A program made the position numbers and the translations under genes. DNA of 64,000 nt from Gammaproteobacteria bacterium. GTDB lineage: Bacteria > Pseudomonadota > Gammaproteobacteria > HyVt-429. Positions 43,623-51,645 of the stretch are shown here, piece after piece. How positions within the stretch are numbered: the first letter of the stretch is position 1; each line of letters begins with the position of its first letter. Below the pieces are notes generated by a model, which saw only the letters and a list, made by a program, of their open reading frames with translations, had not been told where the DNA came from and did no database searches. The stretch is from the NCBI GenBank assembly GCA_022340345.1, contig JAJDOE010000014.1, forward strand, positions 152 through 64,151. The letters run 5' to 3'.

Positions 43623-45143
43623 GACCGGGAAATGATTTCGCACGTGAAAAAAGTCTACCTGGAAACATTTGGCTGCCAGATGAACGTGCTCGACAGCGAG
43701 CTGGTGCTGGGCGCGCTGGAGGGTCGCGGGTACCAGCGTACCGGCCAGCGGGACGAAGCGGATGTGGTGTTGTTCAACACCTGCTCGGTGCGCGCGAACG
43801 CCGAGCACAAAGTCTACGGTCGCCTGGGCGAGCTAAGCCATCTCAAGCGCAAGCATCCGGAGGTCGTGGTGGGCGTACTGGGTTGCATGGCCGAACGCGA
43901 AGGCGCAGACCTGCTGCAGCGTTTCCCGCAGGTGGACCTGCTGGTAGGACCCGGCGAACTCGACCGTGTTCCGGACCTCATTGCTGCATCGCGCGACGGC
44001 AATTCGGGACCGCAGCAAGCGCTTGCCGGTGACCGTGCCCGACGCAGCAGCACCCTGGATGCAGCGGGGGACAACCTGGAACGCCTCGACCTGTCCCGCT
44101 CCATGGATGCGGTGCAACGCCACGGTTCGGCATATGTTCGTATTACCCGCGGCTGTAACAAGTTCTGCAGCTACTGCGTGGTGCCCCGCACCCGCGGTGC
44201 GGAAATCCACCGGCCCCCGGATCACATTGTGGACGAGTGCCGCCGTCTGGTGGATGCGGGGGTAGTGGAAATCACGCTGCTGGGCCAGACCGTCAATCAC
44301 TACCGATTCGATCATGGAGCCAGCATTGTGGTCGCAGGCGTGGTCCAGCCCCAGGTGGGCCCCGGCGGCGGAGCCTTTACCCGCGCGGACAGCAGCTTCA
44401 ACGTCGGGCGCAAACTCACACGTTTCAGCGATCTGCTCGCCCGCATCCACGAGGAAATACCCCAACTCCAGCGGCTGCGTTTCGTCACCAGCTTTCCGAG
44501 GGATTTCGGGGACGACATCCTCCAGGTCATGGCGGACAGCGAACGCATTTGCAACTACCTGCACCTGCCGGTGCAAAGCGGATCGGATCGGGTGCTCCGG
44601 CGAATGAACCGGGGCTACAGCGTCAGCGAGTACCGGGAACTGGTGGCGCGGGCGCGCGCTCTGGTGCCGGGAGTGACCATTGCCAGTGATTTCATTGTCG
44701 GATTCCCGGGCGAGGACGAATCGGACTTCCAGCAAAGCATGGACCTGGTGCGGGCCTGCGGCTTCAAGAACAGTTACGTCTTCAAATATTCGGAACGTCC
44801 CGATACGCCCGCCGCCGGCCGCCTTGCGGACGACGTTCCGGAAGAAGTAAAGAAATCGCGCAACCACCGGTTACTTGCGGTGCAGGCCGAAGTCTCCACC
44901 GCGGTGCACCGCCAGCACCTGGACCGCACGGTGCCGGTACTCGTAGAGGGGGTCAGCCCCCGGGGAAATCCCGAAGCCACCCGCACACAGCTATCCGGTC
45001 GCACGGTTGGCGACCTGATCGTGCTTTTCGAGGGATCCACGGACCTGGTCGGGCACATCGTTCCGGTGGCCATCCACGAAGCACGCCAGCTTGCCCTGCA
45101 CGGTGCGGTAGCGGCGCCGGCCGAGGGCCCGGGCACCCCGTGA
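43623..45143 (+). CDS. MiaB-family radical-SAM methylthiotransferase (tRNA/ribosomal MTTase; subfamily unassigned)
   Basis: N-terminal MTTase domain (VYLETFGCQMNVLDSE…LFNTCSVR); radical SAM CNKFCSYC; C-terminal TRAM. Carries a Gly/Pro-rich insertion (VVAGVVQPQVGPGGGAFTRADSS) inside the rSAM core. Starts 10 nt after metG. Confidence 0.8.
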   Translation, partial: DREMISHVKKVYLETFGCQMNVLDSELVLGALEGRGYQRTGQRDEADVVLFNTCSVRANAEHKVYGRLGELSHLKRKHPEVVVGVLGCMAEREGADLLQRFPQVDLLVGPGELDRVPDLIAASRDGNSGPQQALAGDRARRSSTLDAAGDNLERLDLSRSMDAVQRHGSAYVRITRGCNKFCSYCVVPRTRGAEIHRPPDHIVDECRRLVDAGVVEITLLGQTVNHYRFDHGASIVVAGVVQPQVGPGGGAFTRADSSFNVGRKLTRFSDLLARIHEEIPQLQRLRFVTSFPRDFGDDILQVMADSERICNYLHLPVQSGSDRVLRRMNRGYSVSEYRELVARARALVPGVTIASDFIVGFPGEDESDFQQSMDLVRACGFKNSYVFKYSERPDTPAAGRLADDVPEEVKKSRNHRLLAVQAEVSTAVHRQHLDRTVPVLVEGVSPRGNPEATRTQLSGRTVGDLIVLFEGSTDLVGHIVPVAIHEARQLALHGAVAAPAEGPGTP

Positions 45144-45775
45144 GCCCGAAAAAACGCCGCGAATTTTTTGCAAGACTGCGCGCGGAAGAACCGCAACCCG
45201 CAACCGAACTTCACTACGATTCGCCATTCCAGTTGCTGGTGGCGGTGATGCTCTCGGCGCAGGCCACCGACCGCAGTGTCAACGCCGCCACTGAAAAACT
45301 CTTTGCGGAGGCCGCCACGCCCCAGGCCATTCTGGACCTGGGGCTGGCGCGCCTGAAGAAACACATCCAGACCATCGGCTTGTTCAACACCAAGGCCGAC
45401 AACCTGCGCAAGACCTGCCGGCTGCTCATCGAGCGACACGCCGGCCAGGTACCCCGCACCCGGGAGGAGCTCGAGGCCCTGCCGGGCGTCGGCCGCAAGA
45501 CCGCCAACGTGGTGCTCAACACCGCCTTTGGCGAGCCCACCATCGCGGTGGATACCCACATTTTTCGTGTCGCCAACCGCACCGGACTGGCCCCCGGCAA
45601 GACCGTGCGCCAGGTGGAGGACGCGCTGCTGAAGGCCGTACCGCCCGAGTTTTTGCACAACGCCCATCACTGGCTGATCCTTCACGGCCGCTACACCTGC
45701 CTCGCCCGCAAGCCGCGTTGCGGCGCCTGCGTGGTTTTTGACTTGTGTGCGTATCCCGATAAAGTTGAGCCATGA
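45140..45775 (+). CDS. nth: Endonuclease III (DNA glycosylase/AP lyase)
   Basis: GTG start overlapping the MTTase stop. HhH-GPD (LPGVGRKTANVVL) and a 4Fe-4S cluster (CLARKPRCGACVVFDLC). Confidence 0.93.
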   Translation: MSPKKRREFFARLRAEEPQPATELHYDSPFQLLVAVMLSAQATDRSVNAATEKLFAEAATPQAILDLGLARLKKHIQTIGLFNTKADNLRKTCRLLIERHAGQVPRTREELEALPGVGRKTANVVLNTAFGEPTIAVDTHIFRVANRTGLAPGKTVRQVEDALLKAVPPEFLHNAHHWLILHGRYTCLARKPRCGACVVFDLCAYPDKVEP

Positions 45776-46863
45776 ACGTGGCTGCCACTGGGCTGAGTTT
45801 CGGCCTGCATGCCGAGCGCGATCACGCCGAGCGCGCGGTATCGCAGGCTATGGAGCGAAGTGGGCTGGAACGGGCCAATGCGGTCATCCTGTTTCTTAGC
45901 GGCGAATATGCCGCCAATCCCACCCCGGCGGTGCGTGCCGCCGCCCGGGCCGCGGGCTGCACCCAGGTAGTGGGCTGCACCGGCAGCGGTCTGCTCACCG
46001 ACCAGGAATGGGTGCTGGACAGCCCCGGTGCCGCCGCCATGGTACTCGGCGGCGGGGCGCGCCTGCAGCCGGGTCTGCCGGATGAAGGCGGCTCGGTGCT
46101 CAGCCTTTGTACACCGTATGGCATCGATGCGGAGTGGCTGGCGGCGCCGGTGGCGCGTATCGGCGCGGTATCCACCGACCTGCTGGGCCAGGGCCCTTTC
46201 GCCGTGTGGGGCGGGGGCCGGGTCTCCGACCATGGGCGCACCGAGGCCCGCTTTACCGGCGTACGCGACGTGCTGCGCACCGCCCAGGGCATCCGCGCCC
46301 TGACCGCTCCCATCGAGGTGGCCGCGGTGGAAGGCTTCGAATTGCTGCGGCTGGGAAACTACCCGGCCCTCAATGTGCTGGTACAGTCCCTGCCGCGGGG
46401 TGTCCAGGAACTGGAGCGGGTACCGTTTCACTTGCTCATCAGCGGTGTGACCTTTGGCGATCCGGATACCGCCATCCGGGATGGCCGCTTTCGCCTCAAT
46501 CACATCATGGCGGCGGACCCGGAAAACCGCTCCATCACGCTGGCCCAGGCCCTCAATCCCGGGGAGCGCCTGTTTTGGGCAATTCGCGATGCCCTCAGCG
46601 CCGAACAGGCCTTTCGCACAACGGCGGAACAGGCCCACGAGGCCCTGCAGGCGGATCCGGATTTCGCCCTGCTGTTTCCCTGCGTGGCCCGCGGGCCATC
46701 GTTTTTCGGAAACCGGGACCGGGACATCGAGGTCATGCGCCAGATTTTCCCGGGGCTGCCATTCATCGGCTTTTACGGCAACGGAGAAATTGGCCCGCTC
46801 AACGGGGAGAATCACCTGCACCAGTACAGCACCGTGCTCGGCTTGTACCACGCGCTGCAGTAA
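45772..46863 (+). CDS. FIST sensor-domain protein (FIST_N + FIST_C, stand-alone)
   Basis: 363 aa with no output domain; sequence consistent with the FIST N/C architecture (…AVILFLSGEY…VVGCTGSGLL…FPCVARGPSFFG…IGFYGNGEIGP). ATGA overlap with the nth stop. Confidence 0.7.
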   Translation: MNVAATGLSFGLHAERDHAERAVSQAMERSGLERANAVILFLSGEYAANPTPAVRAAARAAGCTQVVGCTGSGLLTDQEWVLDSPGAAAMVLGGGARLQPGLPDEGGSVLSLCTPYGIDAEWLAAPVARIGAVSTDLLGQGPFAVWGGGRVSDHGRTEARFTGVRDVLRTAQGIRALTAPIEVAAVEGFELLRLGNYPALNVLVQSLPRGVQELERVPFHLLISGVTFGDPDTAIRDGRFRLNHIMAADPENRSITLAQALNPGERLFWAIRDALSAEQAFRTTAEQAHEALQADPDFALLFPCVARGPSFFGNRDRDIEVMRQIFPGLPFIGFYGNGEIGPLNGENHLHQYSTVLGLYHALQ

Positions 46864-46965: not shown

Positions 46966-47229
46966 ATGAAGAACGCGAACAAACTGATCGGAACGGCTAT
47001 CGCCGGCGTACTGGCCCTGGGCGGCACGAGCGCCATGACCACCGCTACCGCCGCGGCACCGGAAATTCAGAAGTGCTACGGCGTGGCCAAGGCCGGCAAG
47101 AATGACTGCCAGACTGTCAACTCCGCATGCGCAGGCACCTCCAAGACCGACGGCCAGAAAGACGCCTGGATCTACGTCCCCAAGGGCACTTGCGAAAAGC
47201 TCGCCGGCGGCTCTACCTCCAGCAGCTGA
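46966..47229 (+). CDS. bufA: DUF2282-family precursor peptide (BufA1-like bufferin RiPP precursor)
   Basis: 87 aa with signal peptide MKNANKLIGTAIAGVLALGGTSAMTTATAAA. Core CYGVAKAGKNDCQTVNSACAGTSKTDGQKDAWIYVPKGTCEKLAGG has 4 conserved Cys. Confidence 0.85.
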   Translation: MKNANKLIGTAIAGVLALGGTSAMTTATAAAPEIQKCYGVAKAGKNDCQTVNSACAGTSKTDGQKDAWIYVPKGTCEKLAGGSTSSS

Positions 47230-47230
47230 T

Positions 47231-48103
47231 TTGCCCGATTCGGACACAACGTCCGCCCGGACTGCAGACCCGATCCCCGCGCGTGCGGGGATCGGGCTGC
47301 GGGCCGACCACTATGAAGATTTGCTCAGCCAGCTCCCGCCGCTGGCCTTTCTCGAAGTTCACAGCGAGAATTATTTCGGCGGCGGCCGGCCCCTCGATTT
47401 CCTGGAACGCCTGGCGGAGCACTATCCGATCAGTTTCCATGGCGTGGGCCTGTCACTGGGGTCCTGCGACCCGTTGAGTACTGCGCACCTGCAACAGATC
47501 GCTGATCTGGATGCACGCTTCCAGCCCGTTTTCCTGTCCGAGCACCTTTCCTTCAGCAGCGCCGGTGGGGTGTTCACCCACGACCTCGTGCCACTGCCCT
47601 ATACCGAGGAGGCAGTTGCCCATTTCGCGTCCCGCATCGCCCAGGTCCAGGACCACCTGGGACGACGAATCCTGGTAGAAAATGTCTCCTGCTACCTGGA
47701 ATACGCCCATTCGAGCCTCAGCGAAGCGGATTTCGTCGCCGCGGTGGCGGAACAGGCCGACTGCGAAATCCTGCTGGACGTCAACAACATCTTCGTCAAC
47801 GCCAGCAACCATGGTCACCGGGCGGAGGATTTTCTGGAATCCATCGTCCCCGAGCGCGTCGCCGAAATTCACCTGGCGGGATTCACGCGCAACCGTTTCA
47901 CCGATGGAGAAATCCTCATCGACACCCACAACCAGCGGGTGGCCCCGGCGGTATGGGAACTGTATGCCAGGACCGTCCGGCGTCTCGGGCCCCGGGCCAC
48001 GCTAATCGAATGGGATACAGACCTTCCGCCCCTGTCGGTACTGCTCGACGAGGCCGAATTGGCGAATCGCATCCAGGACGAAGCCCGTGCTCTCGTTGCC
48101 TGA
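47231..48103 (+). CDS. bufB: MNIO (DUF692, MbnB-like) multinuclear non-heme iron oxidase, BufB-like
   Basis: GIGLRADHYEDL…FLEVHSENYF…ISFHGVGLSLGS…LSEHLSF…LVENVSCYLE…LLDVNNIFVNASNHG…EIHLAGF are DUF692 motifs. The start is inferred as TTG 47231 directly after the bufA stop (290 aa); the alternative ATG 47102 overlaps bufA by 128 nt. Confidence 0.85.
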   Translation: MPDSDTTSARTADPIPARAGIGLRADHYEDLLSQLPPLAFLEVHSENYFGGGRPLDFLERLAEHYPISFHGVGLSLGSCDPLSTAHLQQIADLDARFQPVFLSEHLSFSSAGGVFTHDLVPLPYTEEAVAHFASRIAQVQDHLGRRILVENVSCYLEYAHSSLSEADFVAAVAEQADCEILLDVNNIFVNASNHGHRAEDFLESIVPERVAEIHLAGFTRNRFTDGEILIDTHNQRVAPAVWELYARTVRRLGPRATLIEWDTDLPPLSVLLDEAELANRIQDEARALVA

Positions 48104-48863
48104 ACTGCAGAAACAACTCACCGAAACCCTCTACGGCGGCGAACCGCCGGAGGAACTGCTGCGGCGGGTACTGGCTAACGGCCTGGACCCGGCGCGTCGT
48201 TTGCAGGTCTACCGCAACAACACCTTCAGCAACCTGACCGGCGCGCTGCGCGCGGTCTACCCGGTCATCGACCGCCTGGTCGGCGAGGCGTTCTTCGACG
48301 AGGCAGCACGACAGTACATCCCGAAGCAACCCTCCCTCAGCGGCAACCTCCACGATTTTGGCGCCACCTTCGCCGCTTTTCTCGGCGACTATGCGCACGC
48401 GCAAAGCCTGCCGTACCTGGCGGATGTGGCGCGCCTGGAATGGGCCTACCACCGGGCCTTCCATGCGGTGGATCATGCGCCCCTGGATCTGCAGGCGCTT
48501 TCGCAGGTATCCCGCGACAAACTGGACCGGCTGGTTTTCTTCCTGCATCCGTCGGCTACCCTGATCCACTCCCGCTGGCCGATCATCACCATCTGGCAGG
48601 CCAACCGGGACGAAACCGGGAACGAGCCGGGGGAGATCAGCCTGGATAGCGGCGCCTGCATGGCGCTGGTCATCCGCCGCGGTATGGACGTTTTTTTCGA
48701 GTCGCCACCGGGGCCGGAATTCACACTGCTGCAAAAGATCGCCGCAGGAGAGAACCTGGGGGCCGCTACCAGGGCGGCGCTGGCTGCCGGAGCAATTGAC
48801 CTGGAAGACGTATTGCAACGCCATGTCACGTGTAAGACAGTGACCTCGTTCACGGTCCTGTAA
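48087..48863 (+). CDS. bufC: DUF2063 partner protein (BufC-like, RRE-type)
   Basis: GTG start overlapping the bufB end by 17 nt; LPELQKQLTETLYGGEPPEELLRRVLANGLDPARRLQVYRNN is a typical DUF2063 N-terminus. Confidence 0.85.
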   Translation: MLSLPELQKQLTETLYGGEPPEELLRRVLANGLDPARRLQVYRNNTFSNLTGALRAVYPVIDRLVGEAFFDEAARQYIPKQPSLSGNLHDFGATFAAFLGDYAHAQSLPYLADVARLEWAYHRAFHAVDHAPLDLQALSQVSRDKLDRLVFFLHPSATLIHSRWPIITIWQANRDETGNEPGEISLDSGACMALVIRRGMDVFFESPPGPEFTLLQKIAAGENLGAATRAALAAGAIDLEDVLQRHVTCKTVTSFTVL

Positions 48864-48902: not shown

Positions 48903-49379
48903 ATGAAAAAACTGCTGAGTACCGCCTGTGGCATTGCCAAAGTTGTTACGCCTCGCCTGGACCAACTCGCTCCGGTGGCCGACCTGCTGATCCGGGTGAT
49001 GGCCGCCAAATTTTTCTGGGATTCGGCGCTCACCAAGCTGACGCTGAATTGGGAATTGCCCTTCATTCACATGAACCCCAGCACGCTGATTCTGTTCCAG
49101 TACGAATACCAGGTGCCCCTGTTGCCATCGAGCGTTGCCGCCTACATGGGTTCCGGGGTGGAACTGATTTTTCCGGTGTTGCTGGCCATCGGCCTTGCCG
49201 GGCGACTCAGCGCCTTCGTGCTGTTCGGTTTCAACATCGTGGCGGTTCTCTCCTACCCGGGGCTGAACGCGGCCGGCCAATTCCAGCACCTGCTGTACGG
49301 AGTGATGCTGTTATTGCCACTGTTCCGCGGTCCCGGCCTGATCTCGGTGGATCACCTTCTCAAACAGCGTTGCAACTGA
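48903..49379 (+). CDS. doxX: DoxX family membrane protein
   Basis: …LLIRVMAAKFFWDSALTKL… has 4 TM helices (PF07681-like); fourth gene of a BUF1-type operon. Confidence 0.8.
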   Translation: MKKLLSTACGIAKVVTPRLDQLAPVADLLIRVMAAKFFWDSALTKLTLNWELPFIHMNPSTLILFQYEYQVPLLPSSVAAYMGSGVELIFPVLLAIGLAGRLSAFVLFGFNIVAVLSYPGLNAAGQFQHLLYGVMLLLPLFRGPGLISVDHLLKQRCN

Positions 49380-49396: not shown

Positions 49397-50359
49397 ATGA
49401 GCGGTCCCGCCCCGTCCTTCGCGGCAACCTTGCGTGCCAACGGCCTGCCACCGCTGGTGCGCGCGCCGCTGCAAACGCTGCAGATCAACGTGGGACGGCG
49501 CTGCAACCAGGCCTGCCATCACTGCCACGTGGACGCGGGACCGAAACGCCCCGAGGTAATGACGGCGGAAGTCGCGCGACGGGTGGTGGACTGGGCGCTG
49601 GCGGCAGCGGTCACCGAAGTCGACATCACCGGCGGCGCCCCGGAACTCAACCCGGAATTTCGCTGGATGGTGGACACCTTGCGCACGGCCGGCGTGCAGG
49701 TAATTTCCCGCTGCAATCTCACGGTGCTGTTCGAGCCCGGCCAGCAGGACCTGGCGGAATGGTACGCCGGGCGCGAGGTACGGCTGGTCTGCTCGCTGCC
49801 CTGTTATACCCGGGACAATACCGACGCCCAGCGGGGTGACGGTGTATTCGATAAGAGTATTGCCGCGCTGCAACTGCTGAACCAGCACGGCTATGGTGCG
49901 CAACGGCAACTGGACCTGGTCTACAACCCGGGCGGGGCATTTTTGCCGCCGGACCAGCAGGCACTGGAGCGGGAGTACCGGGAACGGCTGCTGGCGGATT
50001 TCGGAGTTCGCTTCTCACGCCTGCTGGCGCTGGCCAACCTGCCGATCAACCGTTTTGCCCACTTCCTGGAACGCAGCGGCCAGCGGGAAAGCTATCAGCT
50101 CCTGCTGCAGGAAAGTTTCAATGTCGCCACCGTGGACGGCCTGATGTGCCGGCAGCTGCTAAGCGTGGACTGGCTGGGCCAGGTGTTCGACTGCGATTTC
50201 AACCAGATGCTCGACCTGCCGCTGGGGGGAACCCGCCGCTACCTGTGGGACCTGGACCCGGCGACCCTGCCGGGTAAGCCGGTGGCGGTGGATGCGCACT
50301 GCTTCGGCTGCACCGCGGGAGCGGGGTCGAGCTGCGGTGGCTCATTGGTGGCATCCTGA
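49397..50359 (+). CDS. ArsS-family radical SAM / Cys-rich (DUF3641-like) protein
   Basis: LQINVGRRCNQACHHCHVDAGPKR (CX3CX2C); C-terminal HCFGCTAGAGSSCGGS Cys cluster (Cys, not Sec). Resembles the arsenosugar rSAM ArsS / TIGR04167 family. Begins 17 nt after doxX. Confidence 0.8.
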   Translation: MSGPAPSFAATLRANGLPPLVRAPLQTLQINVGRRCNQACHHCHVDAGPKRPEVMTAEVARRVVDWALAAAVTEVDITGGAPELNPEFRWMVDTLRTAGVQVISRCNLTVLFEPGQQDLAEWYAGREVRLVCSLPCYTRDNTDAQRGDGVFDKSIAALQLLNQHGYGAQRQLDLVYNPGGAFLPPDQQALEREYRERLLADFGVRFSRLLALANLPINRFAHFLERSGQRESYQLLLQESFNVATVDGLMCRQLLSVDWLGQVFDCDFNQMLDLPLGGTRRYLWDLDPATLPGKPVAVDAHCFGCTAGAGSSCGGSLVAS

Positions 50360-50472
50360 CGAGTACCACGAGTCAGGATTCCGATTCCTCGCATGATTGC
50401 GCCTCAGCGCAATCATGGCGATGCAAAAGCAATTCCAACTATCGCCATGATCGCGCCGCAGACGCAATCATG
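50353..50472. repeat. Cluster of overlapping REP-like palindromes (core CATGATYGCGC…GCGCAATCATG) between convergent rSAM and dnaJ
   Basis: ATCCTGAC-11 nt-GTCAGGAT over the rSAM stop; perfect CATGATTGCGCctcaGCGCAATCATG (50392-50417); ATCATGGCGAT-18 nt-ATCGCCATGAT (50412-50451); degenerate copy CATGATCGCGC-7 nt-GCAATCATG (50446-50472). Confidence 0.7.
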
Positions 50473-50511
50473 CGAAGGCAAGGACACCCGGCCCATCAAA
50501 TGGCCCGGGCA

Positions 50512-51645
50512 CTAGGATACGAGATCCTCAAAAAACCGCTTGATCTTGTCACTCCACCCCTGGGCCCGCGGATTGTGACGTGAGCCCCCTTCACCGAAAG
50601 AATCCTCCAACTGCTGGAGCAAGTCTTTCTGCTCCTGCGTCAGGTTAACCGGAATTTCCACGTTGATACGGCAGTACAGGTCTCCGGTGTGGCCGCTGCG
50701 CACGCTGCGCACACCCTTGCCACGCAAACGGTAAAGCTTCTCGCTCTGGGTTTCCGGCGCCACTTTGAGGCGCGCCCGGCCATCCAGGGTCGGAATCTCC
50801 AGCTCACCGCCCAGCGCCAGGGTGGCGAAACTCACCGGCATTTCGCAATACAGGTCGTCACCGTCGCGGCGAAAGATCGGGTGGTCTTTGAGGCTGATTT
50901 GGACGTACAGGTCGCCCGGTGGCACGCCGTGCTCGCCGGCCTCGCCCTCTCCCGCCAGGCGCACCTGGTCGCCGGTATCCACACCCGCCGGTACTTTCAC
51001 AGAAAGGGTCTTGGTATGCCGGGTACGGCCCTGGCCCTGGCAGCTTTCGCAGGGATCACTGATGACCTGTCCGCGACCGCGACAATTGGGACAGGTCTGC
51101 TGCACGGAGAAAAAACCCTGTTGCATGCGCACCTGGCCGTGTCCGCCACAGGTCTGGCAGGTGGTCGGCGAGGAACCGGCCTTGGCGCCACTGCCACTGC
51201 AGGTCTCACAACTCTGGTAGGTGGGCACCCGAATCTTGACTTCGGTGCCGCGCACCGCGTTCTCCAGATCCAGTTCCAGGTTGTAGCGCAGGTCCGAGCC
51301 CCGCGCCTGACCACCCCGGCCGCCGCGACGACCAGCGCCGAAGATATCGCCGAAGATGTCACCAAAGATGTCGCCGAACCCCGCTCCACCGCTGGAATGA
51401 AACCCACCGCCCATGGAGGGGTCCACGCCGGCATGCCCGAACTGGTCATAGGCGGCACGCTTCTGGGGGTCCTTCAGGGTCTCAAAGGCTTCTTTCGCCT
51501 CCTTGAATCGTGCTTCCGAAGCTTCATCACCGTCGCTGCGATCCGGGTGGTGCTTCATCGCCAGGCGCCGGTACGCCTTTTTCAGTTCGTCATCGGAGGC
51601 ATTGCGCGGCACGCCCAGGGTTTCGTAGTAATCGCGCTTCGACAT
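50512..51645 (-). CDS. dnaJ: Chaperone DnaJ
   Basis: J domain (HPD); G/F region ([13 protein letters not shown]); four CxxCxGxG Zn-finger repeats. Confidence 0.97.

Follow-up and report, generated by a model that had tools for sequence, protein, structure and literature searches.

The window, that is, the whole 64-kb stretch of DNA that was analysed, carries an arsS-family radical SAM gene behind a bufferin operon and ahead of a palindromic spacer, as follows.

45772-46863, forward strand: FIST-domain gene (Pfam FIST_C 66 bits, FIST 31 bits)
46966-47229, forward strand: bufA, Buf1-type bufferin precursor (Pfam DUF2282, 84 bits)
47231-48103, forward strand: bufB, MNIO (DUF692) bufferin maturase (NF050167 MNIO_BufB, 358 bits, cutoff 310; Pfam MbnB_TglH_ChrH, 343 bits)
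48087-48863, forward strand: bufC, DUF2063 partner protein (Pfam DUF2063, 84 bits)
48903-49379, forward strand: doxX (BufD-type), membrane protein (Pfam DoxX, 45.5 bits)
49397-50359, forward strand: arsS-family radical SAM gene, 320 aa (TIGR04167 and Pfam matches)
50345-50515, no strand: convergent spacer between arsS and dnaJ, 171 nt, with inverted repeats I1-I5

The start of the FIST gene overlaps the stop of nth by 4 nt. Further upstream, metG and nth are separated by a gene for a MiaB-like radical SAM methylthiotransferase (43674-45143); in relatives this place is taken by an RnfB-like ferredoxin gene, of which the window has no homologue. DUF1841, which is common after FIST in relatives, is also absent from the window. 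The bufA product has a signal peptide ahead of a core that contains four Cys residues, and GGAG is found 9 nt before its ATG. The likely start of bufB is a TTG at 47231, one base past the bufA stop, the mechanical start of the open reading frame being at 47102; the orthologue in one related locus (L165) is 288 aa long. bufC overlaps the end of bufB, and its product scores 55.7 bits with the HvfC family, below the cutoff.

The distance from the doxX stop to the arsS ATG is 17 nt, and arsS lies on the same strand as bufA-bufB-bufC-doxX with operon-like spacing, in keeping with the initial annotation, which had the gene end an MNIO RiPP operon. The terminator scan gave no terminator-like site in the gap between doxX and arsS, and terminator-like matches throughout 46.7-50.7 kb were no commoner than in shuffled sequence. 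The promoter scan of the same 46.7-50.7 kb returned no sigma-70-like site and identified no regulator. An alternative in-frame TTG start of arsS at 49370 overlaps doxX by 10 nt; a start at this codon would yield a protein of 329 aa, which is the usual length of the homologues. Recent acquisition of the buf cassette by transfer was considered and rejected, as there is no break in GC content or skew at 46.9-49.4 kb. Homology probes for ArsM, TIGR04282, TIGR04283 and the DedA-MerA fusion found none of these within the 64-kb window, in agreement with the earlier remark that the gene lies away from any arsenic context.

Downstream of arsS, dnaJ, dnaK and grpE are convergent on the opposite strand. 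The spacer between arsS and dnaJ holds palindromes at 50389-50475, with nested 16-nt arms and a perfect 11-bp stem at 50392-50417, and its compound hairpin displays a minimum free energy of −84.9 kcal mol−1 (z = −8.07 versus shuffles) with no T-run. The palindromes had been described as REP-like. They are real and very stable, but a dispersed REP element was not shown, as the core of the palindrome occurs once in the window with no second copy, and no Rfam family matches it. The spacer is probably a transcription-end structure.

The product of arsS matches the NCBIfam profile TIGR04167 (ArsS) with 419.1 bits (cutoff 300, E 9.4e-126), with residues 21-317 aligned to positions 3-303 of the 303-position profile, and the assignment to the ArsS family of radical SAM enzymes is thereby confirmed. 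Pfam recognises a Radical_SAM domain (residues 30-166) and DUF3641 (PF12345, residues 183-316, 175 bits) only, with neither a SPASM nor an RRE domain. The CX3CX2C motif (CNQACHHC; C36, C40 and C43) is shared without exception by the 83 aligned relatives. The C-terminal tail reads H301-C302-F-G-C305-TAGAGSS-C313-GG, and C302, C305 and C313 are conserved in the alignment of relatives. No other NCBIfam model scores above 48 bits, the next-best being those for mycofactocin, MoaA and SPASM-type peptide maturases, which align with residues ~21-169 only; the maturase models remain far below their cutoffs and cover the radical SAM core alone, as does the SbtM model (TIGR04082, 21.8 bits, cutoff 350). 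A protein identical over the 320 aa is present in NCBI under the name ArsS, from a Gammaproteobacteria metagenome-assembled genome. The window protein is an ordinary, previously annotated member of the family.

Conservation was evaluated in the alignment with the 83 relatives, where the window protein agrees with the majority at each of the 91 columns conserved in at least 95% of sequences, including C36, C40, C43, C251, C266, C302, C305 and C313. Its identity to 12 arsM-adjacent members is 51-57% (53% to a cyanobacterial one, L073), and that to its nearest homologues is only 63-70%. Since it departs from the majority at no such column, a divergent paralogue is ruled out. The initial annotation had reserved the case of a divergent paralogue whose close homologues are all arsM-linked and which lacks conserved linkage to DUF692 genes; what was found is a non-divergent protein whose close homologues are not arsM-linked, and MNIO linkage in seven loci.

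The PDB sequence search for a solved structure of the family gave only a weak match to the core (8wm2, 23.7 bits). An AlphaFold2 model built from 30 clade sequences has a mean pLDDT of 81.9, the last 14 residues (307-320, with GSSCGG) falling below 50. Such low model confidence suggests that the tail 307-320 may be flexible or disordered. A Foldseek comparison of the model with the PDB returned BlsE, SuiB, SkfB, CteB and anSME with TM scores of 0.48-0.57, BlsE being the best. These predicted fold matches point to the general SPASM/twitch branch and do not separate small-molecule from peptide substrates.

The family selenocysteine motif is tabulated in a review as GxxU (PMC13188914) and corresponds to G310-S-S-C313 of the window protein; the Cys at the selenocysteine position had thus been placed correctly. 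The accompanying statements, that many members carry selenocysteine and that they typically neighbour arsM, do not hold for the relatives sampled. Cys occupies the site in all 84 related loci translated through the C-terminus and an in-frame TGA in none, which leaves no selenoprotein among the close homologues. For the 80 closest relatives at species level in the genome collection, HMMs built from the neighbouring genes were used to assign partners within 10 kb: ArsM is found in 12 loci, so that 68 have no adjacent arsM, TIGR04282 and/or TIGR04283 in 25 and a DedA-MerA-like fusion in ~15, and many loci are devoid of any partner. Cys in place of selenocysteine and the lack of an adjacent arsM are the norm in this sample. 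That most family members lie outside an arsM context is true of the sample, but this is not specific to the window gene.

Some particulars of these neighbourhoods were recorded along the way. The fusion near ~15 relatives (among L005-L084) joins a DedA/SNARE-associated domain to a MerA-like pyridine nucleotide-disulfide oxidoreductase in ~710 aa. In the same series, other relatives have a fatty-acid hydroxylase-like gene or a DUF547 gene nearby, and one locus (L071) holds all of those partners except DUF547, plus ArsM and TIGR04282/04283.

On quick neighbour-joining trees, the arsM-linked and the glycosyltransferase-linked ArsS members are interspersed, and hence no separate non-arsenic subfamily is visible.

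The clade to which the window ArsS belongs is gammaproteobacterial (Acidiferrobacterales, Sulfuricaulis, 'Muproteobacteria' and Arenicellales). Its usual arsS site is aroC-dcd-mrp-metG-(rnfB-like fer4)-nth-[FIST]-[DUF1841]-...-arsS. Two loci (L011 and L013) have other genes upstream of arsS; elsewhere only the slot directly before arsS varies. L001-L010, L102 and L165-L171 all have a FIST homologue (56-64% identity) ahead of ArsS, making FIST the conserved left neighbour of this slot. The content of the slot was tallied over 25 informative clade loci, the window included, with ORF-based gene calls in the fetched loci that were compared with precomputed Pfam tables for 11 of them.

MNIO cassette and doxX before arsS, 7 of 25: Buf1 type in the window, L013, L014, L038, L102 and L165; Hvf type in L009
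doxX only before arsS, 9 of 25: L006, L007, L008, L010, L017, L167, L168, L170 and L171
Neither MNIO nor doxX before arsS, 9 of 25: L001, L002, L005, L011, L012, L015, L016, L166 and L169

In 18 of the 25 loci arsS is therefore found with no bufABC, precursor or MNIO gene, and in the nine arsS-only loci an intergenic region of ~100-600 nt precedes it. doxX is directly upstream of arsS in 16 loci, 15 of them besides the window with orthologues of 40-56% identity, and the doxX-arsS gaps measure −1 to 67 nt in 12 loci. The pairwise identity matrices of BufB and ArsS give one and the same division of the linked loci into two groups, the pattern that vertical co-inheritance would produce, and ArsS identity among the buf-linked arrangements goes down to 58-60%, across two orders. 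In the DoxX tree, likewise a quick neighbour-joining tree, the doxX of buf-less loci is nested inside the bufferin-cassette group at two separate places, which indicates that bufABC was lost at least twice, leaving doxX-arsS behind. A bufferin-type doxX is intact beside arsS in the nine loci that lost bufABC.

The slot of L009 (5576-9877) contains HvfA, HvfB (450 bits), HvfC, a Glu_synthase-like gene and HvfX (245 bits) before arsS, a second MNIO cassette in this slot, apparently of independent origin. The HvfA-type precursor of this locus has EGQCGEGKCGG (EGKCG) repeats, and its glutamate-synthase-like protein is 533 aa long. On the other side of arsS, TIGR04282 and TIGR04283 follow directly on the opposite strand in L002, L005, L006, L008, L167, L168 and L171. 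In L001, dnaJ comes directly after arsS, as in the window, and in L165 dnaJ-dnaK-grpE follow with one glycosyltransferase gene between; this gene is not TIGR04283 and was left out of the count of family partners.

The linkage was also examined reciprocally. Outside the clade, an MNIO or DoxX gene stands next to ArsS in none of 62 loci. From the side of the bufferin operon, 80 metagenome loci with the closest BufB relatives (51-61% identity) were sampled, of which 37 were informative, with at least 1.1 kb beyond the last buf gene. doxX is present in 25 of these 37 and ArsS in a single one, L102, which is the same nth-FIST locus; two more (L093 and L099) are nth-FIST loci too, ending before a possible arsS. 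The window BufB is at least as close to some BufB proteins from unlinked contexts as to most arsS-linked ones, and none of the arsenosugar partner genes was found at the BufB loci. Co-occurrence of MNIO and ArsS is thus limited to one clade and is consistent with one ancestral and one Hvf-type event; juxtapositions numbering at most two lend little statistical weight to any functional link.

Among known systems, ArsS adenosylates DMAs(III) to DDMAA (PMC13598754), and the substrate of the Synechocystis enzyme is the methylated arsenite supplied by ArsM, its arsS being co-transcribed with arsM (bioRxiv 10.1101/2022.09.23.509062). The window protein resembles ArsS of Synechocystis sp. PCC 6803 in the full-length family match, the Radical_SAM and DUF3641 domains, the invariant Cys residues and the 91 conserved columns; in contrast, there is no arsM in 64 kb and a bufferin operon lies upstream instead. 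It is comparable with the TIGR04167/TIGR04282/TIGR04283 selenodomain cassette in that its closest orthologues have both glycosyltransferase-like partners immediately downstream, whereas the window lacks both and has dnaJ-dnaK-grpE after arsS. Radical SAM RiPP maturases (SuiB, SkfB, CteB and SbtM) share the radical SAM core (TM 0.48-0.57), but the C-terminal domain of the window protein is DUF3641, and SPASM and RRE are lacking by Pfam.

The genes upstream agree with bufABCD of Caulobacter vibrioides (buf1), with a DUF2282 precursor with four Cys, MNIO, DUF2063 and DoxX in the same order; the described core, however, has no radical SAM gene. The bufferin cluster core is given as precursor, MNIO, DUF2063 and DoxX, with other genes 'in extremely low proportions' (PMC12452194). 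BufB1 and BufC1 are enough for Buf1 maturation in vitro, DoxX being dispensable (PMC11626156). Bufferins have a role in metal stress, and metals other than copper have been proposed too (PMC12452194). The published MNIO survey admitted unrelated genes only at 10 bp or less from a core gene (PMC12452194), so that the 17-nt gap between doxX and arsS would have been missed; the text of the survey and those of its supplements that are in text form have no DUF3641 or Radical_SAM partner or entry.

Taken together, the window gene is probably, though by no means certainly, a canonical ArsS-type enzyme that is an inherited neighbour of the bufferin operon, likely to be co-transcribed with it and taking no part in bufferin tailoring. 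The [4Fe-4S] cluster bound by the CX3CX2C motif would cleave SAM reductively, and the 5'-deoxyadenosyl radical would be added to a small trivalent substrate, which is dimethylarsenite in the characterised enzyme, to give 5'-deoxy-5'-dimethylarsinoyl-adenosine. The Cys-rich flexible tail (C302, C305 and C313) may hold such a thiophilic substrate. As for the locus, arsS would ancestrally have stood at a fixed site after metG-nth-FIST with the bufferin cassette already in front, the cassette then having been kept in about one-third of the lineages, trimmed to doxX in one-third and lost in one-third. Given the 17-nt gap and its lack of a terminator, transcription from the buf promoter probably continues into arsS in the window genome.

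Against the canonical reading, the 64 kb hold no arsM, TIGR04282 or TIGR04283 gene, and hence no apparent source of methylated arsenite. The arsenosugar function itself rests on one characterised cyanobacterial enzyme, and since 68 of 80 relatives have no adjacent arsM, the family-wide arsenosugar annotation is an extrapolation. The tight doxX-arsS gaps, the survival of the pair through at least two bufABC losses and the Hvf cassette in the L009 slot further hint that the adjacency may go beyond inertia; these observations fit a metal-stress unit or a DoxX-ArsS pair better than tailoring of a peptide.

A physiological link, in which the bufferin (a periplasmic Cu chelator), DoxX and ArsS would be co-expressed against thiophilic metal or metalloid stress with ArsS keeping its small-molecule chemistry, is unlikely but is the strongest of the alternatives. 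It accords with the short gaps lacking a terminator, with the persistence of the arrangement in two orders at ArsS identities as low as 58-60%, with the second type of metallophore cassette (Hvf) at the L009 slot, and with the action of bufferins in metal stress, where other metals have been proposed (PMC12452194). It is opposed by the nine of 25 clade loci that keep arsS with neither buf nor doxX, by the absence of the association outside the clade, by independent juxtapositions numbering at most two and by scans that identified no regulator or promoter. That the clade ArsS serves MNIO metallophore operons of the Buf1 or Hvf type as an accessory, together with a BufD-type DoxX and acting on a thiooxazole peptide or on a metal(loid) ligand that this peptide handles, is rather improbable; the observations that leave room for it are the retention of doxX-arsS through at least two bufABC losses and the second type of cassette in the same slot.

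Also improbable is a functional pair of DoxX and ArsS, with DoxX for example supplying reducing equivalents or substrate and the MNIO genes being optional. The two genes are adjacent in 16 of 25 clade loci, nine of them with no MNIO gene, at gaps of −1 to 67 nt, and were kept after at least two independent deletions of bufABC; the dispensability of DoxX in bufferin maturation (PMC11626156) leaves room for another role. However, no DoxX lies beside ArsS in the 62 loci outside the clade, nine clade loci have ArsS with no DoxX, the tree shows these DoxX proteins to be ordinary members of the bufferin-cassette group, and DoxX may have been kept for an independent function.

RiPP tailoring, with BufA or its thiooxazoles as the substrate of radical C-S or C-C chemistry, the role that had been suggested at first, is very improbable: although arsS lies on the same strand 17 nt past the last core gene, the linkage recurs in seven loci including an Hvf-type cluster, and the nearest folds include the peptide-modifying SuiB, SkfB and anSME (at TM ~0.5), only one clade shows the linkage (18 of 25 loci with no bufABC and most orthologues with no precursor gene nearby, 0 of 62 outside, 1 of 37 from the BufB side), the protein is indistinguishable from arsM-linked members at every conserved position, SPASM and RRE are missing by Pfam with maturase models covering the core only, the best fold match BlsE is a small-molecule enzyme, and BufB with BufC suffices in vitro (PMC11626156).

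The preferred reading, a canonical ArsS-type enzyme inherited beside the bufferin operon, carries a caution for the genome mining of RiPPs, in that adjacency within one clade may reflect inherited gene order and not shared function. Most of the sampled TIGR04167 'arsenosugar biosynthesis' proteins have no arsM beside them, and the family-wide name therefore extrapolates from one characterised enzyme. If the reading of ArsS as an accessory of MNIO operons were borne out, the biology of bufferin-type metallophores would gain a step involving a radical SAM enzyme and DoxX, with a role for DoxX, and the ArsS family would have a second, non-arsenosugar role.
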